Sequence record: OZ035818.1
Origin: Kayfunavirus BDX03P1
Length of the DNA: 39,754 nucleotides
Strand: one strand, 5' to 3'
Below are positions 1 to 39,754 of this stretch, one piece after another. Below the pieces are notes generated by a model. It ran no database searches. It was not told the DNA's origin and saw only the letters and a program-made list of their open reading frames with translations. Every line of letters starts with the position of its first letter. Positions within the stretch are counted from its first letter, which is position 1. A program made the translations under genes and the position numbers.

Positions 1-29
1 TACAAAACGATTAAAGGAGGTGGTAAAAC

Positions 30-293
30 ATGACGCAGATGGACTTAGAGAAGTTCCTCTTAATGCTAGATACTGAACGTGCTCGACTCATGCTGCAAGA
101 CCTGCGGGATGACACTAAGCGTTCACCTCAGCTTTACAACGCCATTGAGAAGCTACTGGCTCGTCACAACTTCGTGCTAAGCAAGGTGTCTGTCGACGAG
201 AAGACGCTCGCTGATATGGAGGCCCTGAACGCAGAGTACGATAAGGTGCTCTCCGCTACGGAAGATAATGACACTGGATATGGAGTACAGTAA
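30..293 (+). CDS. terminase small subunit (T7 gp18-like)
   Basis: 87-aa ORF with SPQLYNAIEKLL segment and overall resemblance to T7 gp18 as I recall it; followed by Rz-like gene and terminase large subunit in T7 order. Confidence 0.8.
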   Translation: MTQMDLEKFLLMLDTERARLMLQDLRDDTKRSPQLYNAIEKLLARHNFVLSKVSVDEKTLADMEALNAEYDKVLSATEDNDTGYGVQ

Positions 294-305
294 ATCTCTT
301 AAGTG

Positions 306-350
306 TTAGACTCAAGGTCATTACTATATGTAGTGGCCTTTATGGTTAAC
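306..350 (+). promoter_or_regulatory. conserved hairpin element, probable RNase III processing site (T7 R18.5 position)
   Basis: ttagactcaaggtcat...gtggcctttatggtta; near-identical element recurs at 9305-9350 and 16888-16931 with conserved outer arms AAGG/CCTT and variable inner stem-loop. Confidence 0.45.
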
Positions 351-403
351 ACTAACTAGTGGAGGAGACTCTACGTGAAATCTGATAAACCGGGAGGGCA
401 ACT

Positions 404-847
404 ATGCTCGAATTTTTAAAGAGAGCGGCTCCGTGGTTACTCGCAGCAGTGATGTTTGCTGGTGGCTACCACACCGCTAACAATAAGTGGGAGGCTAAGG
501 TCAATGCAGAATACACCTCGAATCTTAAGGCATCGGAGGATACAAGACTTGCTGTCCAAGCTGAAGTCAACAAGGTGTCCAAACGGTTTCAGGACGAGAT
601 GTCCTCGCTGGAAGGCAGCACTGACAGGATTATTGCTGACCTTAAGTCTGACAATAAGCGGTTGCGCATCCGAGTCAAACCTACGAGTGGAACCACGCAA
701 AGTGACGGTCGATGCGTCATTGATGGTTACGCCGAACTTGACGAACGAGATGCTAAACGTCTTATCGCCATCGGACTGAAAGGAGATAAGTGGATTACGG
801 CCCTTCAGGACACTGTGAGAGCCTTGCAGCAAGATAAGGAGCAATAA
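404..847 (+). CDS. i-spanin, Rz-like (T7 gp18.5-like)
   Basis: 147-aa ORF, N-terminal hydrophobic segment PWLLAAVMFAGGY then charged/coiled region; position after gene 18. Confidence 0.8.
   Translation: MLEFLKRAAPWLLAAVMFAGGYHTANNKWEAKVNAEYTSNLKASEDTRLAVQAEVNKVSKRFQDEMSSLEGSTDRIIADLKSDNKRLRIRVKPTSGTTQSDGRCVIDGYAELDERDAKRLIAIGLKGDKWITALQDTVRALQQDKEQ
504..779 (+). CDS. o-spanin, Rz1-like lipoprotein (T7 gp18.7-like), embedded in +1 frame of the Rz gene
   Basis: ORF 456-779 in alternate frame; lipobox LTISGC followed by ASES, PRWKxAL motif resembling T7 gp18.7; start at internal ATG 504 chosen over 456 (uncertain). Confidence 0.6.
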   Translation: MQNTPRILRHRRIQDLLSKLKSTRCPNGFRTRCPRWKAALTGLLLTLSLTISGCASESNLRVEPRKVTVDASLMVTPNLTNEMLNVLSPSD

Positions 848-1230
848 TGCTAACAGACTTTGCGTATTCAGACGGTAAGTTGTTCAGGAAGGGACGTGAA
901 GTCGGCTCAATGGACAACCACGGGTATCTGAGGACTACGGTCAACTATCGTAAGTATCTCGTACACCGTCTAATCTACAAGCTGCACAACCCTGAGTTCG
1001 ACCTTGAATCAGACCTTGTGATTGACCACATCAACCGCAACCGGACAGACAACAGGATTGAGAACCTTCGGGCTGTGACCAAGGCTGAAAACAACAGGAA
1101 CAGGGACCTGCCAAGAGGCGTGTCTTATTGTAAACAGACCGGGAAGTGGAAGGCTATACAACCTCGCTGGCTCGGTCGATTTGAGACTGAACAGGAGGCC
1201 ATTGATGCAGTTAACGCCGCAAGAGCGTAA
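847..1230 (+). CDS. HNH homing endonuclease with AP2-like DNA-binding domain
   Basis: 127 aa; HNH core [29 protein letters not shown]; C-terminal AP2-like segment [32 protein letters not shown]; start ATG overlaps Rz stop. Confidence 0.8.
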
Positions 1231-2968
1231 TGACGCCGTGACAAAGAGGATGAAAGAGGACTTCGTGTTCTTCTTATTCGTCCTCTGGAAAGCACTTAGC
1301 CTACCAATACCAACCAGATGCCAGATAGATATGGCCCGTAAGCTATCGGCTGGGGACAACAGGCGCTTCATCTTACAGGCGTTCCGTGGTATCGGGAAGT
1401 CCTTCATTACGTGTGCCTTCGTTGTCTGGAAGCTATGGAACAACCCAGACTTGAAGTTCATGATTGTGTCGGCCTCAAAGGAACGAGCCGATGCTAACTC
1501 CATCTTCATCAAGCGAATCATCGACCTCATGCCTCAGCTTCAGGAACTCAAACCTAAGCAGGGACAGCGAGATGCGGTTATCAGCTTCGACGTTGGACCA
1601 GCCAAGCCAGACCACTCACCTTCGGTTAAGTCAGTTGGTATCACTGGTCAGTTGACTGGTAGTCGTGCTGACATCCTGATTGCCGACGACGTGGAGGTTC
1701 CGAACAACTCAGCGACTCAGGCTGCACGAGACCGTCTATCAGAGCTTGTGAAAGAGTTCGACGCTATCCTGAAGCCTGGAGGTACAATCATCTATCTGGG
1801 TACTCCTCAGAACGAGATGACCTTGTATCGTGAGCTGGAAGGCCGTGGATACACCACTACTATCTGGCCTGCTCGCTATCCACGTGATAGGAAGGACTGG
1901 CAGTCTTACGGCGACCGTCTGGCACCGATGCTTCAGGCAGAGCTGGAAGAGGACCCTGAGTCCTTCTACTGGCGTCCGACCGATGAAGTTCGCTTCGACG
2001 ATACTGACCTGAAGGAACGTGAGCTGTCCTATGGTAAAGCTGGCTTCGCTCTACAGTTCATGCTCAACCCGAACCTGAGTGATGCCGAGAAGTACCCTCT
2101 GAAGCTCCGTGACCTTATCGTAGCAGACTTGGACCCAGCGTCCAGCCCAATGGTCTACCAATGGTTGCCTAACCCTCACAACAAGCGTGAGGACGTTCCT
2201 AACGTTGGACTCATGGGCGACTCGTACCACACGTATCAGACTGTAGGTTCTGCCTTCAGTTCGTACACCCAGAAGATTCTGGTCATTGACCCTAGTGGTC
2301 GTGGTAAGGATGAAACTGGCTATGCGGTACTATACCAGCTCAACGGCTACATCTTCGCTATGGAAGTTGGCGGTATGCGTGGTGGTTATGAAGACTCTAC
2401 TCTGGAAGCTCTGGCTAAGATTGGTCGTAAGTGGAAGGTCAACGAATACGTCATTGAGGGTAACTTCGGTGATGGTATGTACCTTGAGTTATTTAAGCCT
2501 GTAGCGGCCCGTATCCATCCTGCGGCTGTAACTGAAGTGAAGAGTAAGGGTCAGAAAGAACTCCGCATCTGTGACGTTCTGGAGCCTATCATGGGGTCTC
2601 ACAGACTTATCGTCAACGCTGCTGCTATCGTCCAAGATTACCAGTCGGCCTCTGATAAGGATGGTGTTCGTAACCCTATCTACTCTCTCTTCTACCAGAT
2701 GACACGTATCTCTCGTGAACGTGGGGCCTTGGCACACGATGACCGACTTGATGCGCTGGCTATCGGTGTACAGTTCTTCGTTGAGTCTATGGCTAAGGAT
2801 GCCAACAAAGGCGAACGTGAAGTCACTGAGGAGTGGCTGGAGGAACAGATGGAGAACCCACGGAAAGGCTTCGAGTCCATCCACACTGAGTTCTGGGACA
2901 ATGGGGTCCGGGTAACCCACGATACGGACGACGAGCTGGGGCTAGGGTCATACGTTACGTTCCACTAG
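1205..2968 (+). CDS. terminase large subunit (T7 gp19-like)
   Basis: Long ORF 1181-2968; strong resemblance to T7 gp19 ([21 protein letters not shown] Walker A region, [20 protein letters not shown]); start 1205 chosen by alignment of N-terminus, alternative ATG at 1181. Confidence 0.9.
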
Positions 2969-3062
2969 CTGAATGAATAACTATGGGTGAAAGCTGCATG
3001 AATACGCAGTTAGTAACCTATAGTTACTACCAGTCTAACCTACTGTTTTACAAGGAGTTTGG

Positions 3063-29673: not shown

Positions 29674-30144
29674 ATGTATATTCGCAAGGCTACGGAACAG
29701 GATGTCCACTACTTTCTGTGGCATCTTTCAGCAGACGATGTTAATGAGTGCAAAGCAAACTACGGGTCAACCGTGGGTCTCTCAGAGAGACTGCTTAAGC
29801 ACCTATCTCCGTCATCTGTGGTTTTAACGAACGGTGTAGGTGAAGTGTTTGCCTATGGTGGAAACCAAGGGGATAACGTATGGTTTTTGACTTCGGGTCT
29901 GGTCTACAAGCTGGGGCCTAAAGAGAAGCTAGAGTTCATAAAGCGTATCTCTGAGTACAGGGACTTAATGTTAGACCAATACGGGACCATCTGGAACTAC
30001 GTGTGGTCAGGCAATAAGTCTCACATTAAATTCTTGAAGTTGCTTGGCGCTAAGTTCCATGATGATTGGACTGTAAGCCCAGTAACTGGTGAGCGTTTTC
30101 AACTATTCACTATCTCTAAGGAGGACGTATGTGCGAGCCAGTAA
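29674..30144 (+). CDS. gp13-like protein (internal virion/assembly protein, by position)
   Basis: 156-aa ORF between gp12 and gp14. Confidence 0.55.
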   Translation: MYIRKATEQDVHYFLWHLSADDVNECKANYGSTVGLSERLLKHLSPSSVVLTNGVGEVFAYGGNQGDNVWFLTSGLVYKLGPKEKLEFIKRISEYRDLMLDQYGTIWNYVWSGNKSHIKFLKLLGAKFHDDWTVSPVTGERFQLFTISKEDVCASQ

Positions 30145-30716
30145 GTATCGGCATGGGCATTATGGCTGTAGCTGGTGCCGCTATGTCCGCTTCTAGTCAG
30201 GCCAAAGCTGAGGGTGCTGCTATCGACGCTCAGAACCGTCAGGCTCAGGAGATGGTTAAGCAGATGAACTACTCTGACGCCAACCTGAAGATGCAGGAGC
30301 GAGACCTGAAGGAACAGCAGATGGCTGAACTGACAGAGACCACGTTAAACGGTGTCCGCAATCAGGGTATGGTCCGAGCTGCGGTAGCTGAGTCCGGTTT
30401 GGAAGGTAACTCCATGGACAGGATTGAACGTCAGGTAGAGGGAGATACAGTCAAGGAGCGAGCCGGGATTACCGAAAGCTACAACCGCGACTATGCGGCT
30501 ATCTTTGGGAACCGTATCGCCAACATTGAGAACACCAAGTCTGCCATCCGTGGTCAAGGTAAAATAATCAAGACCAGCCCACTGGCTCATGCACTTAATG
30601 TTGCCAACGCAGGGATGCAGGGATACGCTGCTGGTAAGTCAATCTCTGGGGCTTCAAGCTCTGGTGGTTCTGCACCGATTAGTGCTGCTAAAGGCACACC
30701 TACAGGTCATAGCTAA
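30129..30716 (+). CDS. internal virion protein B (T7 gp14-like)
   Basis: 195 aa; GSSMDRI, YNRDYAAIF, PIxAAKGT resemble T7 gp14. Confidence 0.85.
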   Translation: MCEPVSIGMGIMAVAGAAMSASSQAKAEGAAIDAQNRQAQEMVKQMNYSDANLKMQERDLKEQQMAELTETTLNGVRNQGMVRAAVAESGLEGNSMDRIERQVEGDTVKERAGITESYNRDYAAIFGNRIANIENTKSAIRGQGKIIKTSPLAHALNVANAGMQGYAAGKSISGASSSGGSAPISAAKGTPTGHS

Positions 30717-30727
30717 GAGGAGGACTA

Positions 30728-33010
30728 ATGGCTAGTAATATTGAATCAGCTCTGGCTAATCGGACTATGGGTCGTGGCAGAGCGCCTGGTAAAACTATCG
30801 CCGTCAACTATCAAGCAGCCAGCGTTCAGGCTCCAACTGGTGACTCTGGTCTGGCGCGTGCGTTAACTAACTTCGTTGAGTCTGGGACTGGATTGTACAA
30901 GCAGTTCAAAGACGAGGAGAAGACCAGAGCCGACGAGCGGTCTAACGAGATTATCCGTAAGCTGACTCCTCAGCAGAGACGAGAGGCTATCCAGAACGGG
31001 ACACTGCTGTATCAGGACGACCCGTATGCTATGGAAGCACTTCGAGTCAAGACGGGTAGAAACGCTGCCTTTGCGGTAGACGATGAGATTAACGTTAAGA
31101 TTCAGAACGGTGAGTTCCGTACACGTCAGGACATGGAAGAGTATCGCCACCAGCGACTTCAGGACGCCGCTAAGTCCTATGCTGAAGAGGCAGGTATTAA
31201 CCCTACAGATGAGTTCTTCCAGCGCGGGTTCAACGATAACATCACAGACCGCAACATCGCTATCTATGGGTCTTTCAATAAGTATTTCAGCAAGCAGTCT
31301 GAAGAGACAGCAATGTTGAACACTCGTATTGAGATGAACTCGTTCCTTAACGATGGGGACCTGATGCGTTCGCCTGAGTCTGGAAAGACCTTCATGGCCT
31401 ACCTTCGGGATGGACTAACGACTGCTGCTATCCCTTCGGACCAGCGAGCACGAGAGGTCATTACCCAGACGGTCCGTGACGCAATCCAGAAATCAGGCGG
31501 CTCAAACTTCTTACAACAAGTACGAGGTGAGCGAATCACCCTTAACGGTGTGGATGCTACAGTCGAAGAGATTGTAGGACCTGATGTCTTCAACGCTGCT
31601 ATTGTTGAGGCACAAGGCACTGAGTACAAGCTGGTTGCTAAGTATCAGGAAGACTTGGCTTTAGGCGTTCAGTCTGCGATTCTTCAGGATGACCCGACCA
31701 TCGGTCTGGCCCAGATTCAGAAACTCAAGGAGCAGAACAACCTGCTTCAACCGGGTGAAGAACTCACGCCTCAGCGTCAGATGCTTATTAATGCCGAAGC
31801 CAGCTTGCTTGAAGCGGTAAAGCGTAAGTCTGCTGAACAGGCGAAGGAGAACACTAAGTTAATCCAGACTCAGAACAAGCAACTGGTCATTGACCAAGTG
31901 TATCAGCGACGTCTGGCTGGGGACAACGTGTCCACCAACTATGAGGACCTTCCAGTCTCAGATGCTACAGGCGAGTTCAAGCGTTCTGACATGAACAACT
32001 ATGCGTCTGCCAAGCTACAGCAGATTGACCAGATGGACATACCTGAGGCTGCTAAAGACGCTCAGAAGGTGGCATTGTTAAGAGCTGACACTAACAACGG
32101 TCCATTCCGTAATGCCTTCCAGACTCTAACTCAGGACGCTGCTGGCGAGTGGCAAGCTGCGGTCATCCGGGGACAGTACGACCCAGACAAGATGCAACGC
32201 TTCGAGTCTCTTCGTCGTGCCTACACTCAGGACCCTTCAAGTTTTGCAGCTCTGTATCCTGACCAAGCTCAGTTGTTCTCTACGTTCGACCAGATGGACA
32301 AGATGGGTCTGGACCCTCAGACGATGATTGAAGCTGATAAGCAAGCTGCAAGTCAAAGCCGTGAGATGCGCATGGAGTCAGACAAGGCGTGGCAGGAGTT
32401 GAAGAACGACTCCAAGAACACCCAGTTGTCTCGCCTCCCAACGTCTCTGGACTCAAGTGCTCGTAAGGTCTGGGACTCATGGTACTATCGTACAGGTAAC
32501 GCTGACGCTGCAACTCAGCAGACTCAACGCTGGCTGAATGAGAACACAGTAACGTTCCAGTCTGAAGGTTCTGACGGTAAGTCAATCGGCATGGTGTCCA
32601 AGCACCAGCTTATGGTTGGGGACAACCCAGAGTCGTGGCAGGTGGGTCGAGATATTATCGACACCGCTCGTCAGCAGCTCATTAAGGCCAACCCTTGGGT
32701 AGTGAACTCTCAGTTGTCCGTTGTTGAACAGAACGGCTCTATCTTCCTCCAAGACGCTACAGGGACTATTCGTATTCGCTACGATAAAGAACTTGTAGGT
32801 AAACTCTACCGCGAACAACAGCAGAAGGCACAAGATGCCGCATACGCTCAGGCAGAACGTGACGCTAACAAGCGAGCGCGTATCGTCGGGACTAAAGCTG
32901 CTGGTGACAAACGTCGAGCTGACCGAGAGGCCAACATCGAGAAGCGCGGTGGGATGTACAATGACGTCTCACTGGAGGGTATCGCAAACGTACTAATTGG
33001 TAAGGAGTAA
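30728..33010 (+). CDS. internal virion protein C (T7 gp15-like)
   Basis: 760 aa; ERSNEIIRKLTPQQRREAIQNGTLLYQDDPYAMEALRVKTGRNAA nearly identical to T7 gp15. Confidence 0.9.
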   Translation: MASNIESALANRTMGRGRAPGKTIAVNYQAASVQAPTGDSGLARALTNFVESGTGLYKQFKDEEKTRADERSNEIIRKLTPQQRREAIQNGTLLYQDDPYAMEALRVKTGRNAAFAVDDEINVKIQNGEFRTRQDMEEYRHQRLQDAAKSYAEEAGINPTDEFFQRGFNDNITDRNIAIYGSFNKYFSKQSEETAMLNTRIEMNSFLNDGDLMRSPESGKTFMAYLRDGLTTAAIPSDQRAREVITQTVRDAIQKSGGSNFLQQVRGERITLNGVDATVEEIVGPDVFNAAIVEAQGTEYKLVAKYQEDLALGVQSAILQDDPTIGLAQIQKLKEQNNLLQPGEELTPQRQMLINAEASLLEAVKRKSAEQAKENTKLIQTQNKQLVIDQVYQRRLAGDNVSTNYEDLPVSDATGEFKRSDMNNYASAKLQQIDQMDIPEAAKDAQKVALLRADTNNGPFRNAFQTLTQDAAGEWQAAVIRGQYDPDKMQRFESLRRAYTQDPSSFAALYPDQAQLFSTFDQMDKMGLDPQTMIEADKQAASQSREMRMESDKAWQELKNDSKNTQLSRLPTSLDSSARKVWDSWYYRTGNADAATQQTQRWLNENTVTFQSEGSDGKSIGMVSKHQLMVGDNPESWQVGRDIIDTARQQLIKANPWVVNSQLSVVEQNGSIFLQDATGTIRIRYDKELVGKLYREQQQKAQDAAYAQAERDANKRARIVGTKAAGDKRRADREANIEKRGGMYNDVSLEGIANVLIGKE

Positions 33011-36000
33011 CATAATGGCGACTCGTGGTATTCGCAATAACAATCCGGGTAACATCCGGGTAAGTAAGGACCAATGGGAAGGAATGACTGGAGATGATGG
33101 CGCATTCGTCACCTTCGATAGTCCAGAGTCTGGCGTCCGAGCTTTAGGTAAAAACCTGCTGTCCTACGGTCGCCAAGGTTATGACTCCATCGAGAAGATT
33201 ATCAACAGATGGGCACCTCCTAACGAGAACGACACTAAGGCTTATATTGACTCAGTTGTGGCTGCAACTGGTATTCCAGCTACCCAGAGTCTAGACCTCT
33301 CGAACCCGGACACCCTGTCTTCTCTGGCTCAAGCTATCAGCTTCCATGAGACAGGCTCCCGGTATGACCCTGAAGTCTATCAGAAGGGAGTCGAACGAGC
33401 ACTCAATGGCATTAGCCCAAAGACTCCACCAGTAAGCGCTAACGTATTTGACGCACTCACGGAAGGACTCAAGGCTAAACCTAAAGTAGCTCTGGGTGAG
33501 AACCTTCCGACCGCTGCTGGTCTGAACATTGAGGGTCAAGCACCTGAAGCTCCCAACGAATCGTTCGGTGAGATGTTCTATAAGGCTACTGGAGAGACCA
33601 TGCAGGAACGAGAGGACCGCTCTACGTGGTTCGGTTTCGGTGCGGCTACAGAAGCTGAAGTGAAGAACTCTATGATCGGCGTGGCTATACGAGCTGGTCA
33701 GACTGAGGACTCACTGGATGTCATTGGCGATGTGTTCAACCCAACCCGATGGAACAACCATAAGTGGTCTCGTGAGGAGCTGGACCAGATTCGTAACGCT
33801 GGGGTTCTGCCTCAGTATTACGGAGTCATTACTGGCGGTTCTCCTCAGAATCTGACAGAGCTGATTAACTTGGCGCTTGAGAACCAGAAGTTGGACCAAG
33901 AGAAGGCCAAGGCTGGGACTGGCGCTCAACTGGCGGCTGGTGTGATTGGTGCTGGTGTGGACCCTCTGACCTACGTTCCTATTGCTGGGCAGGTAGGTAA
34001 AGGTGGGAAGCTAATCAACAAGATGTTCACTGTGGCTGCTCAGTCTGGTGCTCTGGCTGGGACATCCGAGATTGCTCGAACCTCAGTTGCTGGTGGGGAC
34101 GCTCATGTGGCTGAGGCCATTATGGGCGGTGCTCTCTTCGGTGGTGGTATGACTGCTATAGCTGATGGACTAGGCAGAGCCTTAGGTCGCAACACTAACG
34201 AGTTCGCTGGTCCAGCTACACGTCTGGAAGCTCGCGAGACTGCACGTAATGTTGACGGTCAAGACCTGTCGCGTATGCCAATCCGTGAAGGAGAGGAGAC
34301 CTTTAGTCACCAAGGCGTTAAGTTCGCTGACGTGCCGAATGAGCCGGGAAGTGTACGATTAGAAGATGGTTCAATCTTGATTGGTGAGAACCCTCTGAAC
34401 CCTAAGACCCGTCAAGTCTTTGACGAAGTGATTGAGCCGGAACGTGCCGCTGCTGGTGTGAACCTTGGTGGACTTACCGAGATTGGCCTGAAGCTGCTTC
34501 GGTCTGAGAACCCTGAGATTCGTGGAGTAGCTGCTGACTTAGTACGTTCACCGACTGGTATGCAGTCTGGGGCCTCAGGTAAAATAGGGACAACTGCATC
34601 AGACGTGTTCGAGAGACTTCGTGCTGTGGACCATCGGTTCTACAACGACATCGACGATGCGGTTACTGAGGCCCTAAAGGACCCGTACTTCCAGACAGCA
34701 TTCTGGCGAGACTCTGGCGCATTCCGTCAGGACATCTACCAGCGTGTGTCTATGGCTATCGAAGATGGTAGCGGAAACCTGAAGGCTGAACTGACTCCGG
34801 GAGAACTGAAAGTCTATGACCTGCTGAAGAACCAGTTCGACGCCAAGCGTGAGATGATGGAGAACCCAGCTATGTTTGGTCGCCCAGACGCTCAGTCTAT
34901 CTTTCCGGGTAGCCGCTTCAAGGGAACATACGTCCCTCATGTGTATAGCAAACAGATGAAGGAGCTGTACATCAAGGAGCTTGGGAGTCCAGAGGCGTTG
35001 CAGGAGGCCATCAAGAAGTCATGGCTTACCAGCTATGCGTCTCGATCTGAAGTCAAGAAACGCGTGGACGAGGCACTCTTAGAGGCTGACCCTACGTTGA
35101 CTCCAGATGGACTTGCTGCTGCGGTCGATAAGTACGCCAACGATAAGGCTTACGGTATCTCTCACACCGAGCAGTTCGAACGTTCATCCGTAATGGAAGA
35201 GAACATCAACGGTCTGGTTGGTCTGGAGAACAACAGCTTCCTTGAGGCTCGTAACCTGTTCGATAGCGATATGTCAATCGTCCTACCTAACGGTCAGACA
35301 TTCAGTGTAAACAATCTGCGTGAGTGGGACATGGACAAGATTGTCCCGGCCTACAACCGTCGAGTTAATGGAGACATTGCTATCATGGCTGGTACAGGCA
35401 GAACCACGAAGGACATGAAGGACTTGGTTGAGACCATGATGAACAAGGCCGGGGATGACGGCAAGTTGAAAGGTGAGGTATCTACCTTACGTGACACCTT
35501 GAAGATTCTCACTGGTCGTGCTCGGCGTGATGGGGCTGATGATGCAGCCTTCGCTACAGTGATGCGTACAATGACAGACCTATCGTTCTTCGCTAAGAAT
35601 GCCTACATGGGTGTTCAGAACTTGACGGAGATTGGTGGTATGCTGGCTCGTGGCAACGTTCGTGCGCTTCTGCATGGAGTCCCGATGTTCCGTGACCTAG
35701 CCTTCCGTAACAAGAAGGTAGGAGCTTCAGAGATTAAGGACCTGCACAATGTTATCTTCGGTAAGGAACTGGATGACTCAATCCGTCCGTCTAAACAGGA
35801 TGTCATTGACCGTCTGCGGTCTTACAGTGACCTCGGTCGTGGTGCAGCTACAGCTCTGGGGACTGCCAAGTATTACACTGGTGAACTTGCAGTACGCTCT
35901 CCGTTCACTAAAGTCCTCAACGGTACGACCAACTACCTGTTAGATGCTGGACGTCAAGGCTTCCTGTCTGACATCGTGGAGCATAGTCTGACTGGTAGTA

Positions 36001-36902
36001 AGCGTAAGTTCGATGACCGCTGGCTTAAGACAGCTGGTATATCTGACGAGCAGTGGAAGGGCATTAAGTCCCTAATCCGTGAGTCAGTGACTCGTGGTCC
36101 AGACGGGAAGTATACCATCAAGGATAAGAAGGCGTTCAGTCAGGACCCAAGGTCTATGGACCTGTGGCGTATGGGTGACACCATCGCTGACGAAACGTTA
36201 CTCCGGCCCCACAAGCTGTCAAACATGGACGCCAAGGCTTATGGTCCTCTCGCTAAGACTGTCCTTCAGTTTAAGAACTTCGTCATCAAGTCCATCAATG
36301 GACGTACCATGCGAACCTTCTATAACGCCACGAAGAACAACCGAGCGATGGACGCTGCTCTGTCCACTGTGATCTCTATGGGTCTTGCTGGTATCTACTA
36401 CATGGCTCAGGCGCATGTCAAGGCTTACGCTATGCAGGATGGTCGAGACCGTGACTACCTCAAGCAAGCTCTGGACCCGACGATGATTGGATATGCAGCT
36501 CTATCACGTAGTTCACACCTTGGTGGACCACTTGGGGTAGCTAACATTCTTGGTGGTATCGCTGGGTATGAGGACACTAAGATGCTCCGTTCGTCTATCC
36601 TCCCTCGTTCACCTACAGAGAAGCCTGAACGTGCCATCGCATATGGTGCGGCTACAAGTGACCCTGTGATGAATGTCGTCGGTAACTTCTTGGAGCAGGT
36701 CCCGGCTTTCGGCTATGCTGCTAACGTTGGCGCTTCGGCTTACAACTTGGCTGGCTATCTCAATGCTGATACTCGTGTCAATGAGCGTGACTACATGACC
36801 GGGATGTATAACACGTTCCGTGAACTGGTCCCGAACGACCCGATTACCCAGAAGTTACTGCTTGGAACGTTTGAGGAGCAAGGTATCCACATCAAGGACT
36901 AA
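32997..36902 (+). CDS. internal virion protein D (T7 gp16-like), N-terminal domain divergent from T7
   Basis: 1301 aa; residues from about 200 onward colinear with T7 gp16 (PTRWN, VTGGSP, LEARETARN, VRSPTGMQSGASGK, KGTYVPHVY); N-terminal ~190 aa lacks the SLT-type E-S / GLMQ motifs. Confidence 0.9.
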   Translation: MVRSNIMATRGIRNNNPGNIRVSKDQWEGMTGDDGAFVTFDSPESGVRALGKNLLSYGRQGYDSIEKIINRWAPPNENDTKAYIDSVVAATGIPATQSLDLSNPDTLSSLAQAISFHETGSRYDPEVYQKGVERALNGISPKTPPVSANVFDALTEGLKAKPKVALGENLPTAAGLNIEGQAPEAPNESFGEMFYKATGETMQEREDRSTWFGFGAATEAEVKNSMIGVAIRAGQTEDSLDVIGDVFNPTRWNNHKWSREELDQIRNAGVLPQYYGVITGGSPQNLTELINLALENQKLDQEKAKAGTGAQLAAGVIGAGVDPLTYVPIAGQVGKGGKLINKMFTVAAQSGALAGTSEIARTSVAGGDAHVAEAIMGGALFGGGMTAIADGLGRALGRNTNEFAGPATRLEARETARNVDGQDLSRMPIREGEETFSHQGVKFADVPNEPGSVRLEDGSILIGENPLNPKTRQVFDEVIEPERAAAGVNLGGLTEIGLKLLRSENPEIRGVAADLVRSPTGMQSGASGKIGTTASDVFERLRAVDHRFYNDIDDAVTEALKDPYFQTAFWRDSGAFRQDIYQRVSMAIEDGSGNLKAELTPGELKVYDLLKNQFDAKREMMENPAMFGRPDAQSIFPGSRFKGTYVPHVYSKQMKELYIKELGSPEALQEAIKKSWLTSYASRSEVKKRVDEALLEADPTLTPDGLAAAVDKYANDKAYGISHTEQFERSSVMEENINGLVGLENNSFLEARNLFDSDMSIVLPNGQTFSVNNLREWDMDKIVPAYNRRVNGDIAIMAGTGRTTKDMKDLVETMMNKAGDDGKLKGEVSTLRDTLKILTGRARRDGADDAAFATVMRTMTDLSFFAKNAYMGVQNLTEIGGMLARGNVRALLHGVPMFRDLAFRNKKVGASEIKDLHNVIFGKELDDSIRPSKQDVIDRLRSYSDLGRGAATALGTAKYYTGELAVRSPFTKVLNGTTNYLLDAGRQGFLSDIVEHSLTGSKRKFDDRWLKTAGISDEQWKGIKSLIRESVTRGPDGKYTIKDKKAFSQDPRSMDLWRMGDTIADETLLRPHKLSNMDAKAYGPLAKTVLQFKNFVIKSINGRTMRTFYNATKNNRAMDAALSTVISMGLAGIYYMAQAHVKAYAMQDGRDRDYLKQALDPTMIGYAALSRSSHLGGPLGVANILGGIAGYEDTKMLRSSILPRSPTEKPERAIAYGAATSDPVMNVVGNFLEQVPAFGYAANVGASAYNLAGYLNADTRVNERDYMTGMYNTFRELVPNDPITQKLLLGTFEEQGIHIKD

Positions 36903-36967: not shown

Positions 36968-39550
36968 ATGGCTAAGATTACGATTAATAACTACCCGTCA
37001 GGCCCCACTCAGTTCAAGATAGCGTTTGACTACTTGTCCCGAACCTTTGTGGTCGTAACCCTAGTCCGTACCAGCAATCAGGCCCTAAACAAGGTCCTGA
37101 CTCCAAATAAAGACTATCGGTTCCTGAACTCAACGACCATAGAGATATTGGTGTCCCAGACTGGATTTGACGTTGTTCAGATCCGCAGACAGACAGCAAC
37201 AGACTTAGTGGTTGCTTTTCGTGACGGCTCGGTCCTGACAGCAAGCGACCTGACTAACGCAGAGCTTCAGGCAGTCCACATCGCTGAAGAAGGTCGCGAC
37301 CAGACAGCAGACCTTGCTAAGGAATATGCTGACTCAGCCCTGACGTCTGCTAACCGAGCCAAGGCTTCTGAGAATGAGGCCGCACGTCTCGCTGAGAAGA
37401 TTCGAAACATGGGCGTAGGCGGTTACGTAACGGTTCGCCCTCCAATCGGTTCCTTCACCTTGGGCTACACAATCCAAGAGTGGAACGAGGTTCTCTGGAA
37501 CGATGATGACCTAAGTTATTACCGATGGGACGGGGCTGTTCCTAAGGTCGTTGCTCCTGGTTCGACTCCAGCAACCGCTGGTGGGGTCGGCGCTGGTAAG
37601 TGGGTTAATGTTGCCGACGCTAGTCTCCGTAGTGACCTCGGTCAGACCTCTGGTGCTGGGCGAATTGGAACAGCCACTGGTCAGACCCTAGCTGAGTCAC
37701 TTCACGCAGAAGACTCTCCGATGTCCTTCGGTACGGCTACAGCTAAGGCTAAGGCCAGATTAGCGACTCATGGTTGTCGTGTCCTTCTGGTTGGGGACTC
37801 ACTGAGTAGCTTCTACAACATAGACACCGCAAACGTAACGTCCCTCTTTGAGTCGTACCTCCGACGTAAGGTACACGAGACCAACCCGTCTGCCGAGTTT
37901 ATCAACAGGGCCATAGGCGGGATGCGATATTATGACTTAGGCCGTGATGAGCCGCCTGCACGCCTTGGCGATGGATACCCGTGGTTCACTGATAGATCAC
38001 GTCGCTGGATGTCTTATATCGAAGAGGCCAAGCCTGATGTAATCTTCATCGCGTTCGGCATGAACGATGGTCCGGGATGGGACGTAGGTAACTTCCAGCA
38101 GCCAGTGTTCTACAAGATGGTCGAAGAACTTCGGTCTATCTCTAGTGAACCTGAGCTGGTGTTCTGCACGAACATCTTACCGTCTACCGTTAACCCGGCT
38201 ACTGCCACAGAGGAACAACAGTCTGGACGCGACGCTATTGCTGGATGGACCCGTTCGTATGCTAAGTTTGCTGGGTATAGCTTCATAGACATCCATCGCC
38301 ACTTTAAGTCTCTGCGTGATGGGGTAGACCCCTGCGTATTTAGCTTCCGTCGCTCCACAATATCGACTCTGGTAGACCTCCCGTATACCTATACGTCGAA
38401 AGTGCCGTGCTACTCGGTACGACTCACTGTAGTGGACCCTGCTGTCCTTGTTACTGGCATCCAGATGTACCTATCGTCTTTAACGAACAACTTCGTCACC
38501 CTTTCATATGAAAGCGCATTAGGGAAGTGGCGTTTACAGCACTACACTGGGACATCTCTGGGGATGACGCTTAACGTGTTAGGAGATGGACCAGCGCCAG
38601 TGGTCGACCAAGAGATTCATATGTCCCTTAATGGTGATGTACTGACGGTGTTCATTGGGAAGAACACAAAGCCTATATTTTCTGGAAACATTATCCGTTT
38701 CGGCGGTAAGTTCACTCCGAGGATTGGAGGCACAGGCCAGATTAGGGTGGACATCATGGCTGGATTAGAGGTTCCGGTAGCTGCGTCTCTCACGGATTCC
38801 GACATCTACAGTACGAGTATAGACGGCGGTAACGGTCTTAATCACCCTACTGCTAAGGCCAGCTCCAGAATCTATCCACCGCCATTGGACTACTGGTTCA
38901 ACTCAGCAGGTCCAGAGCCCCTCAAGTTCGACATCGAGGCCGACTTCAGGTCTGGCACACTTGCGGTGTCCAACAAGTTTAGTCCAAAATCTGGAGGCGT
39001 ATACAACCTGTTCACCAAGCTGACCTTCATCAACGGTGCAGTAGAATATGTGCGGGACTCTGAGAACGTGGTTATAGGGGCGCGCTTCGGGTCAAACAAC
39101 CGGGCGTATATCGACATGGCAGACTACATGGAACCGGGGCTGTCCTTCAAGCGTCTGACTGTAGAGATTGAGATGTATGCACCGTCTGGAGCTGCGCACG
39201 TCTTATCCCTCGGTGAGGCCACTACAGGGGACCGCTCTATGTATCAGGTGACGGAAGGTCTACAGCTTCGAGCCACTACTTCCAGCTCAGGTCAAGCAAC
39301 GGACTTAACGTCCTCAGCGTCTTTCCATATGACTGCTGGTCGAGACTACACGTTAATCCATGATGTGGACTTAAAGGCCAAGGTTGCAGCTCTCCGTACT
39401 GTGGATGGCTTCAAGATTGGGAACACCAACACCCACGCGATTACCAGCCTATTATCTGAGCTCCTGTCTAAGATTAAGTTCGGGTATTCATCTCCTAGTA
39501 CATTTGGGGGAGATGTGGTGATTAAGCGTGTGCGGATTGCGCTTAGGTAA
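36968..39550 (+). CDS. tail fibre / tailspike with T7 gp17-like N-terminal anchor and SGNH-hydrolase (esterase) domain
   Basis: 860 aa; N-terminal ~150 aa resembles T7 gp17 (FDYLSRTFVVVTL, DYRF, RDGSVLTASDL, HIAEEGRD); central GDSL block LLVGDSLSS, conserved Gly AIGGMRYY, GxND block IFIAFGMNDG, DIHRH near end of domain. Confidence 0.9.
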   Translation: MAKITINNYPSGPTQFKIAFDYLSRTFVVVTLVRTSNQALNKVLTPNKDYRFLNSTTIEILVSQTGFDVVQIRRQTATDLVVAFRDGSVLTASDLTNAELQAVHIAEEGRDQTADLAKEYADSALTSANRAKASENEAARLAEKIRNMGVGGYVTVRPPIGSFTLGYTIQEWNEVLWNDDDLSYYRWDGAVPKVVAPGSTPATAGGVGAGKWVNVADASLRSDLGQTSGAGRIGTATGQTLAESLHAEDSPMSFGTATAKAKARLATHGCRVLLVGDSLSSFYNIDTANVTSLFESYLRRKVHETNPSAEFINRAIGGMRYYDLGRDEPPARLGDGYPWFTDRSRRWMSYIEEAKPDVIFIAFGMNDGPGWDVGNFQQPVFYKMVEELRSISSEPELVFCTNILPSTVNPATATEEQQSGRDAIAGWTRSYAKFAGYSFIDIHRHFKSLRDGVDPCVFSFRRSTISTLVDLPYTYTSKVPCYSVRLTVVDPAVLVTGIQMYLSSLTNNFVTLSYESALGKWRLQHYTGTSLGMTLNVLGDGPAPVVDQEIHMSLNGDVLTVFIGKNTKPIFSGNIIRFGGKFTPRIGGTGQIRVDIMAGLEVPVAASLTDSDIYSTSIDGGNGLNHPTAKASSRIYPPPLDYWFNSAGPEPLKFDIEADFRSGTLAVSNKFSPKSGGVYNLFTKLTFINGAVEYVRDSENVVIGARFGSNNRAYIDMADYMEPGLSFKRLTVEIEMYAPSGAAHVLSLGEATTGDRSMYQVTEGLQLRATTSSSGQATDLTSSASFHMTAGRDYTLIHDVDLKAKVAALRTVDGFKIGNTNTHAITSLLSELLSKIKFGYSSPSTFGGDVVIKRVRIALR

Positions 39551-39592
39551 TAACCTTGGGTCACGGACGACCCGCTTTAAACTGGAGGTTTT

Positions 39593-39754
39593 ATGATTGA
39601 GTTAGACTTCAAGAATGAAGTCCTTAAAGCCTCTCCTATCGTCGGGACCGCTGCGGCTGATGGTGCCAGTCGGTTCTTCTTCGGACTCACACTGAACGAA
39701 TGGTTCTACGTTGCAGCTATCGCGTACACCGTTGTCCAGATTGGTGTGCTAGTC
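39593..39754 (+). CDS. holin (T7 gp17.5-like), 3'-truncated by window end
   Basis: MIELDFKNEVLKASPIVGT...FFFGLTLNEWFYVAAIAYTVVQIG closely matches T7 gp17.5; ORF runs off the window. Confidence 0.8.
   Translation, partial: MIELDFKNEVLKASPIVGTAAADGASRFFFGLTLNEWFYVAAIAYTVVQIGVLV

Follow-up and report, generated by a model that had tools for sequence, protein, structure and literature searches.

The window analysed here, the whole 39,754-nucleotide sequence of record OZ035818.1 (Kayfunavirus BDX03P1), is a complete K1F-like (Kayfunavirus) genome in which genes 14, 15, 16 and 17 stand in the order known from T7, with gp14, gp15 and gp17 syntenic with their T7 counterparts and gp17 bearing the T7 tail-fibre N-domain. 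The subject of this analysis is gene 16, whose features are collected with those of its neighbours in the table below. Its product, gp16, is about 98% identical to the protein deposited as "Gp29" (PDB 9vvp_L) over all 1295 residues, matches PHROG 342 with an E value of 0, and aligns with T7 gp16 (PDB 7eyb/6yt5) at 1301 bits over residues 128-1294 (7eyb_I). It is homologous to T7 over both the linker and the membrane/cytoplasmic body, which identifies it as a T7-type internal virion protein D. The 9vvp deposition comprises four chains of this protein and is accompanied by an "Adaptor protein" entry (9vvr), which suggests that it is a virion structure. Upstream, gp15 follows its T7 counterpart colinearly from residue 3 onward, with 46% identity over 718 amino acids (BLASTP), and any replacement relative to T7 is thus limited to gp16.

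Features of the gene 14-16 region (positions are those of the window; residue numbers are those of gp16)
Feature	Position	Strand	Basis
Gene 14, internal virion protein B, ejectosome partner	30129..30716	+	PHROG 805, 5e-65
Gene 15, internal virion protein C	30728..33010 (stop codon 33008-33010)	+	BLASTP to T7 gp15; PHROG 1339
Ribosome-binding site AAGGAG, 7 nt 5' of ATG 33015	33002..33007	+	read from sequence; overlaps last gp15 codons
Gene 16, internal virion protein D, ejectosome protein, 1295 aa	33015..36902 (including stop codon)	+	ORF; PDB and PHROG matches
Residues 1-129, Enc34/PHA02564-type muralytic (glycoside hydrolase) domain in place of the T7 SLT domain, function predicted	33015..33401	+	
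W66 codon, equivalent to Enc34 Trp79, substrate-positioning aromatic residue	33210..33212	+	7q47 alignment
Y77 codon, equivalent to Enc34 Tyr95	33243..33245	+	7q47 alignment; invariant in 34 and in 10 homologues
E112 codon, motif F-H-E-T-G, equivalent to Enc34 Glu131, proposed catalytic	33348..33350	+	7q47 alignment
Residues 130-206, extended linker, homologous to T7 gp16 157-228	33402..33632	+	BLASTP start 130/157; AF2 pLDDT
Residues 207-1295, conserved body	33633..36899	+	55% identity to T7

A preliminary description of this DNA had gene 16 begin at a TTG at 32997, a start that arises from mechanical extension of the open reading frame (32997-36902). The true start is instead the ATG at 33015, giving a product that begins MATRG; it is backed by the ribosome-binding site and by homologue starts, as Kayfunavirus gp16 coding sequences and PDB 9vvp_L begin at the equivalent Met, which in the homologous Kayfunavirus genes lies 4-5 nt past the gp15 stop. 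The same description held that gp16 is colinear with T7 gp16 from about residue 200 and that the first ~190 residues lack the signature of a soluble lytic transglycosylase (SLT). Both the colinearity and the missing signature stand, but the former begins at residue ~130 (T7 157; BLASTP) and the latter accordingly concerns only ~129 residues. Across alignments, homology to T7 sets in at residue 128-130, paired with T7 155-157; it is weak over residues 130-200 (31-32% identity to T7 157-222, with an E value of 7e-8 for this segment alone) and climbs to 55% identity past residue 200. The body of T7 gp16 crosses the inner membrane and extends into the cytoplasm. In T7, residues 1-156 form the catalytic domain and 157-228 a "molecular tape" that binds gp15 in the ejectosome (PMC8954989), and the junction in the present protein coincides exactly with this structural boundary between the catalytic "wing" and the gp15-binding tape.

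Nothing of the T7 head is recognisable upstream of this junction. Pfam SLT gave no match at E<=1, either in residues 1-200 or in the whole protein, whereas the first 200 residues of T7 gp16, taken as positive control, match PF01464 SLT at 5e-31. Residues E37, S38, G52 and Q55, which belong to the E-S and G-x-MQ motifs, are invariant in aligned SLT-type gp16 heads and have no counterpart in the present one. BLASTP of the N-terminal ~129 residues against T7 gp16 found no significant similarity (best E=4.9), and the ~19% identity that a global MAFFT alignment forces over residues 1-129 is at noise level and was not counted as homology. A sensitive profile comparison, the check put forward in the preliminary description for a diverged SLT domain, pointed the same way: hhalign of the head profile against SLT-type gp16 N-termini returned a probability of 0.3% and left the SLT catalytic columns unaligned. 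The GH23 topology, with a catalytic helix N-terminal to the core helices, is likewise absent from the predicted fold of the head. The lack of any SLT signal in residues 1-129 supports the reading that a different module is present.

That module belongs to the family of the Enc34 endolysin. Residues 3-122 match the catalytic domain of this enzyme (7q47_A) at an E value of 2.6e-14 (phmmer), and the domain matches PHROG 873 "endolysin" at 1e-55 as well as PHROG 992/2276/7182. It has 878 homologues at E<=1e-3, and its identity to free-standing proteins and endolysins from outside the T7-like phages, which number in the hundreds, lies at 31-57%. Single-sequence AlphaFold of residues 1-200 was unusable (pLDDT 37), and an alignment-based run was used in its place; the resulting model is all-helical and alpha-lobe-like with no beta lobe, as in the Enc34-type fold, and its pLDDT falls below 50 beyond residue 133. 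Scans with Pfam and NCBIfam models, covering the N-terminus as well as the entire protein, yielded nothing useful; neither collection has a model for the family, which presumably explains why a naive reader would take the domain for "unknown". It also has no sequence or profile membership among the GH73 N-acetylglucosaminidases. The exchanged segment has a GC content of 0.49-0.52, its surroundings one of 0.51-0.56; this is not anomalous and gives no sign of recent acquisition.

The proposed catalytic triad of Glu, Tyr and an aromatic residue is kept in gp16. The Enc34 motif RHENG aligns with FHETG, whose E112 is invariant in alignments of 34 and of 10 homologues, and W66 is at least 90% conserved in the former and W or Y in the latter. 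The RGIRNNNPGNIR loop, W66, Y77 and H111-E112-x-G114 are all kept, in Kayfunavirus as well as in the divergent L014 lineage. The catalytic role of Glu131 in Enc34 is itself based on structural superposition and not on mutagenesis (PMC8943055). With this triad and the match to 7q47, the earlier suggestion that the head was exchanged for a module of another kind, one that degrades or binds peptidoglycan, is supported.

The nearest relatives fall into four groups. The gp16 of Escherichia phage K1F, EcoDS1 and other Kayfunavirus is the same gene, with the same architecture and N-domain, differing by point substitutions only; DNA identity over genes 15-16 is 95-96% and protein identity over the N-domain reaches 99%, so that the present gp16 is another allele of the Kayfunavirus/9vvp_L protein. 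The Enc34 endolysin ORF39 of a Hafnia phage (7q47; PHA02564) and M4Lys of Salmonella phage BSPM4 carry the domain fused to a C-terminal transmembrane domain, and Enc34 bears two short insertions that the alignment shows to be missing from gp16. These are lysis-cassette enzymes that act from within at the end of infection, whereas the gp16 domain, carried at the head of a protein that is ejected from the virion, would do its work at entry and from the outside. The domain also recurs, at 31-53% identity to that of gp16, in other virion-associated lysins, as part of proteins that are ejected or associated with the tail. These carriers differ from gp16, and in them the domain is N-terminal, internal or free-standing: the gp16-equivalent of Burkholderia phage Bp-AMP1 begins with it, SPN1S_0017, a virion protein of 937 aa from the epsilon15-like phage SPN1S, has it in its interior, and gp72 of the Aeromonas myovirus phage 2_D05 carries it next to the tape measure protein; P5 of PM2 has also been tied to 7q47 (PMC9502842). 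T7 gp16 (7eyb, 6yt5, 7k5c), finally, is homologous from residue 130 to the C-terminus, follows genes 14 and 15 in the same place, and presumably plays the same part in the ejectosome, with a small head that cleaves peptidoglycan at the corresponding place. In T7, however, this head is a lytic transglycosylase of the SLT/GH23 type whose catalytic residue is E37, and it is unrelated to the K1F-type head by sequence and profile.

A homologue search with residues 1-130 returned only short free-standing homologues and fragments, with near-identical full-length gp16s missing, probably an artefact of candidate selection, and the distribution was therefore taken from tblastn on a phage collection. There the gp16 body occurs in 1258 phage records (219 at >=80% identity), the PHA-type N-domain in 221 at >=60% identity, and the SLT-type N-domain in 1139, including deep-branching Pseudomonas T7-likes. 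Every sampled gp16 record with the PHA-type domain is classified as Kayfunavirus, and this architecture is also seen in a more divergent T7-like fragment of metagenomic origin. The head that the preliminary description implied to be unusual is hence standard across the whole K1F-like genus, and the counts, with the few records sampled, indicate that it was probably acquired once.

Taken together, these observations make it very probable that gp16 is a normal T7-type ejectosome protein whose SLT head (GH23, T7 1-156) has been replaced by a ~129-residue all-helical Enc34/PHA02564 domain. The exchange would have been one event in the Kayfunavirus ancestor, drawing on a lysin module widespread in phage virion proteins and endolysins, and it is consistent with the mosaic make-up for which podovirus ejection proteins are known (PMC8954989). 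In the proposed mechanism, gp16 is held in the capsid core and leaves through the tail once gp14 and gp15 have done so. Its N-terminal domain would then refold in the periplasm, where, with E112 as putative acid catalyst, it may cut the glycan strands of peptidoglycan locally and so open the way to the inner membrane for the gp15-gp16 tunnel.

The enzymatic activity, bond specificity and role at entry that we infer for the head lean on what is known of its relatives. The catalytic domain of Enc34 (ORF39deltaC) lyses outer-membrane-permeabilised Escherichia coli, Pseudomonas aeruginosa and Hafnia alvei (PMC8943055), and M4Lys, as M4LysdeltaTMD, degrades purified peptidoglycan and frees GlcNAc from muropeptides (PMC7143992). 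By homology with M4Lys and the GH73 enzymes, the head is most likely an N-acetylglucosaminidase and would probably cut a different glycosidic bond from the T7 head. The fuller proposal, of a glucosaminidase acting at GlcNAc-(1,4)-MurNAc, possibly with endopeptidase activity as suggested for M4Lys, while the T7 enzyme cuts MurNAc-(1,4)-GlcNAc, is one that we advance tentatively and with somewhat less than even confidence. Less likely is an active head of other chemistry, either a muramidase or lytic transglycosylase (MurNAc-GlcNAc, as in T7) or a bifunctional glycosidase/endopeptidase: the M4Lys results were taken to show both glucosaminidase and endopeptidase activity, with muramidase named in a figure legend (PMC7143992), the Enc34 work includes no measurement of bond specificity, and many records call the protein an exotransglycosylase, a name that reflects annotation transfer and is not evidence.

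It is improbable that the head is catalytically dead, serving as a peptidoglycan-binding module or as a purely structural "wing" of the gp15-gp16 tunnel. Enzymatic function could in principle decay, since the lytic transglycosylase activity of T7 is dispensable in standard laboratory conditions (Moak and Molineux 2000, as cited in PMC8954989); E37 mutants of T7 gp16 are delayed at low temperature or on stationary-phase, highly cross-linked walls. However, retention of the whole signature in both Kayfunavirus and the L014 lineage is the pattern expected of purifying selection on an active site. That the N-terminus is the ancestral SLT/GH23 domain, diverged in place past recognition and never replaced, is effectively refuted: the Enc34 authors do propose a very distant ancestry shared with GH73 and GH23, with a common alpha-lobe and an equivalent Glu/Tyr/aromatic triad (PMC8943055), and the sole local hhalign match, not significant, pairs FDSPESGVRALGKNLL with T7 RLNPELAINAAAKQLA, but against this stand the profile results given above, an identity to hundreds of non-T7-like proteins beyond what in-place divergence could yield, a permuted topology with the catalytic helix after the core helices and not before them (PMC8943055), and an abrupt, domain-sized loss of similarity next to a gp15, linker and body that are still 31-55% identical to T7.

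The K1F genome paper of Scholl and Merril from 2005 is said to have remarked on the absence of a transglycosylase motif in K1F gp16. Text searches of the literature found no explicit statement of a link between Enc34/PHA02564 and internal virion proteins, or between K1F gp16 and a non-SLT head. The Enc34-type head of gp16 is an already known state, common to the whole genus, and its domain family is already characterised; the chief value of the finding lies in annotation and interpretation, and it opens no new biological question. Many Kayfunavirus records name the protein "peptidoglycan lytic exotransglycosylase", "mltF" or "peptidoglycan transglycosylase", names inherited from T7 for a protein with no SLT domain, and the family evidence points to the mislabelled head being a hydrolase, probably a glucosaminidase. 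The gene also offers a clean case of exchange at an exact domain boundary, with the catalytic head swapped and the gp15-binding tape kept, which suggests that, for phage engineering, the head of gp16 may be treated as a replaceable cassette. If the proposed difference in bond specificity is true, the chemistry used to breach one and the same wall would differ between two sister groups of T7-like phages, and the sensitivity of Kayfunavirus to host wall modifications or growth state could be different, for example towards the O-acetylated or highly cross-linked peptidoglycan of encapsulated pathogenic E. coli.

The gp16 of the window (internal virion protein D) is very probably a T7-type ejectosome protein whose head, the N-terminal enzymatic domain, is a glycoside hydrolase of the Enc34 type (PHA02564-type) with a peptidoglycan-degrading role. 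It is encoded in a complete T7-like phage genome (genus Kayfunavirus, K1F-like) some 39.7 kb in length, which shows 92-95% identity with other Kayfunavirus over its first 25 kb and 95-96% DNA identity in genes 15-16 to EcoDS1, K1F, Mt1B1_P3 and many others. Compared with the T7 map, its gene order is permuted, with the Rz-like gene and large terminase subunit first (within 1-3000) and gene 17 last; the sequence stops just past gene 17 (39550-39754), and its ends probably reflect an arbitrary opening of the genome, not the terminal repeat. The ORF following endonuclease I has no Pfam match and matches only PHROGs of unknown function (16385, 15211). The gp17 is not the K1F endosialidase: its residues 14-130 form a T7 tail-fibre N-terminal adaptor, 160-217 a TSP1/Gp66-type Tail_spike_N domain and 272-449 a GDSL/SGNH esterase domain, and the rest belongs to PHROG 17220, of unknown function; this domain content suggests a tailspike that would deacetylate or otherwise de-esterify surface polysaccharide.

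Positions of genes in the Kayfunavirus BDX03P1 genome
Feature	Position	Strand	Remark
Rz-like spanin gene	404-847		T7 gene 18.5
Large terminase subunit	1181-2968		T7 gene 19
ORF, 151 aa	13241-13696	+	directly after endonuclease I (gene 3)
gp16 ORF	32997-36902	+	product 1295 aa if started at ATG 33015
gp17 tail protein	36968-39550	+	860 aa

The biologically sensible start of gp16 is the ATG at 33015 (product MATRGIRNNN...), since an AAGGAG ribosome-binding site, overlapping the gp15 stop, lies 7 nt upstream, and homologues, both a deposited PDB entry (9vvp chain L) and annotated Kayfunavirus genes, start at the equivalent methionine; the start at 32997 in the preliminary description is an ORF-calling artefact. 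Among solved structures, T7 gp16 (7eyb, 6yt5) matches at 1301 bits, only over residues 128-1294 and from T7 residue 155, while pairwise BLASTP places the beginning of homology at 130/157 (window/T7) and finds nothing in T7 gp16 for residues 1-129. Compared with T7 gp16, residues 1-129 show identity no higher than noise, residues 130-200 show 31% and those beyond 200 show 55%; the weakly conserved stretch 130-198 by itself matches T7 significantly (E=7e-8). The foreign N-terminus described earlier is thus real but about 129, not ~190, residues long, and the colinearity with T7 reported from about residue 200 holds for the downstream part but sets in earlier, at residue 130.

The preliminary description was also right that the N-terminus lacks the signature of the SLT-type head, the GH23 lytic transglycosylase of T7 (PF01464): Pfam finds no SLT match in gp16, whereas in the same scan the positive control, T7 gp16 residues 1-200, matches SLT at 5e-31. 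Nor is this a diverged SLT domain retaining its catalytic Glu, as a profile of SLT-type heads, built from T7, K11, FE44, phi15, CHF33, Luksen and ECBP2, relates to the PHA02564-type domain profile with a probability of only 0.3% in hhalign; this result, together with the abrupt loss of similarity to T7, leads us to reject divergence in place. Immediately upstream, gp15 is colinear with T7 gp15 from residue 3 (46% identity), and the gp16 linker immediately downstream of the head is homologous to T7. That both neighbours are still T7-homologous supports replacement of the head over divergence in place, in agreement with the domain swap proposed earlier for the cell-wall end of gp16. In T7, residues 1-156 constitute the transglycosylase "wing" (PMC8954989), and since homology resumes at T7 residue 157, the exchange took exactly the enzymatic head, with the gp15-binding "molecular tape" and all that follows retained. 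That podovirus ejection proteins exchange their lytic domains has been recognised before (PMC8954989).

One other PDB entry is matched, by residues 3-122: 7q47, the catalytic domain of the Hafnia phage Enc34 endolysin (E 2.6e-14). These residues also fall in several PHROGs with the annotations endolysin, head protein, tape measure or tail injection transglycosylase, and score best with PHROG 873 (1e-55). A protein search returned 878 homologues of the head, mostly free-standing proteins of ~135 aa whose source name is "structural protein". In 34 aligned homologues the RGIRNNN-GNIR loop, Y77 and E112 are invariant, and W66, H111 and N113 nearly so. In the HMMER alignment W66, Y77 and E112 correspond to Enc34 Trp79, Tyr95 and Glu131, the residues singled out by the Enc34 authors, with Glu131 as the proposed catalytic one (PMC8943055; 7q47 chain numbering is shifted by one relative to that paper). 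What the analysis shows directly is the homology, the predicted fold, the conserved signature and the gene context; the matches and retained signature support the earlier suggestion of a different peptidoglycan-degrading or -binding module.

We infer the activity of the gp16 head, its bond specificity and its role at entry. The Enc34 catalytic domain lyses outer-membrane-permeabilised Escherichia coli, Pseudomonas aeruginosa and Hafnia alvei, and its authors propose that members of the family are most probably N-acetylglucosaminidases working by a GH73-like mechanism (PMC8943055). The homologous domain of M4Lys, the Salmonella phage BSPM4 endolysin, breaks down purified peptidoglycan and liberates GlcNAc from muropeptides, and endopeptidase activity was also inferred by its authors (PMC7143992). 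For the gp16 head, the case for glucosaminidase specificity is evenly balanced. By analogy with T7, the head would enter the periplasm as the leading part of gp16 and would open peptidoglycan locally for the gp15-gp16 tunnel; according to Moak and Molineux, as cited in PMC8954989, T7 needs its gp16 head only against a highly cross-linked wall.

The Enc34-type domain is a common, mobile lysin cassette. It is N-terminal on the gp16-equivalent (1665 aa) in Burkholderia phage Bp-AMP1 (Okabevirinae), internal to a 937-aa virion protein in the epsilon15-like phage SPN1S, adjoins the tape measure gene in an Aeromonas myovirus, serves as endolysin in Chi-like siphoviruses and D3112-like Pseudomonas phages, and is present in PM2-type (P5) and some microvirus records, with the proposed catalytic triad retained in every aligned example from outside the T7-like phages. 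Records of ssDNA Microviridae (H86, H95; "similar to VP3", "P5-like structural protein") and small Vibrio phages with records of 10-15 kb (H60-H63) carry it, so the cassette crosses virus realms (compare PMC9502842).

The gp16 body, the part beyond head and linker, occurs in 1258 phage-collection records, 219 of them at ≥80% identity and nearly all others at ≤56%, a sharp break. The PHA02564-type head is found at ≥60% identity in 221 records, those sampled in a gp16 context all being classified as Kayfunavirus, and the SLT-type head in 1139, including T7, T3-like, Klebsiella Przondovirus, Yersinia, Dickeya and deep-branching Pseudomonas members. These counts agree with a division into two head states, the SLT type being ancestral and replaced once on the Kayfunavirus stem. 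A divergent T7-like metagenomic fragment (Logan SRR25948546) shares the head-plus-tape architecture at 67% identity in gp15, 66% in the gp16 body and about 50% in the head, so the fusion predates the named genus; the composition profile of the window shows no trace of recent transfer in the swapped segment. In this 1753-base fragment gp16 passes from frame 2 to frame 1 at about 1165-1174, between head/linker and body, so that gene callers split it into 202-aa and 151-aa products; the change may be a genuine frameshift or a fault of the assembly. A Kayfunavirus-type head 94% identical to that of the window also lies at 30938-31279 of MT350292.1 ("Enterococcus phage EFA-1", 40.7 kb, labelled an Enterococcus faecalis phage), whose host label or sample purity is doubtful, since a Gram-positive bacterium is an implausible host for an enterobacterial T7-like phage.

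The window gp16 is a further allele of the Kayfunavirus protein, and the feature is already known in substance: for K1F and EcoDS1, RefSeq uses the name "internal virion protein with endolysin domain", the PDB has a protein of ~98% identity (9vvp chain L), and structure and enzymology of the domain family are published (PMC8943055, PMC7143992). In the searchable literature, which excludes the K1F genome paper, no passage turned up that says outright that the head of K1F-type gp16 is of the Enc34 type and not of the SLT type. Many GenBank Kayfunavirus gene 16 products (including the phage-collection matches H4, H29, H49, H56 and H99-H101) are named peptidoglycan lytic exotransglycosylase, peptidoglycan transglycosylase or "mltF", evidently by annotation transfer from T7, since the SLT domain is absent. 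The useful outcome is a modest correction of annotation, the evidence on the head contradicting the lytic transglycosylase names.
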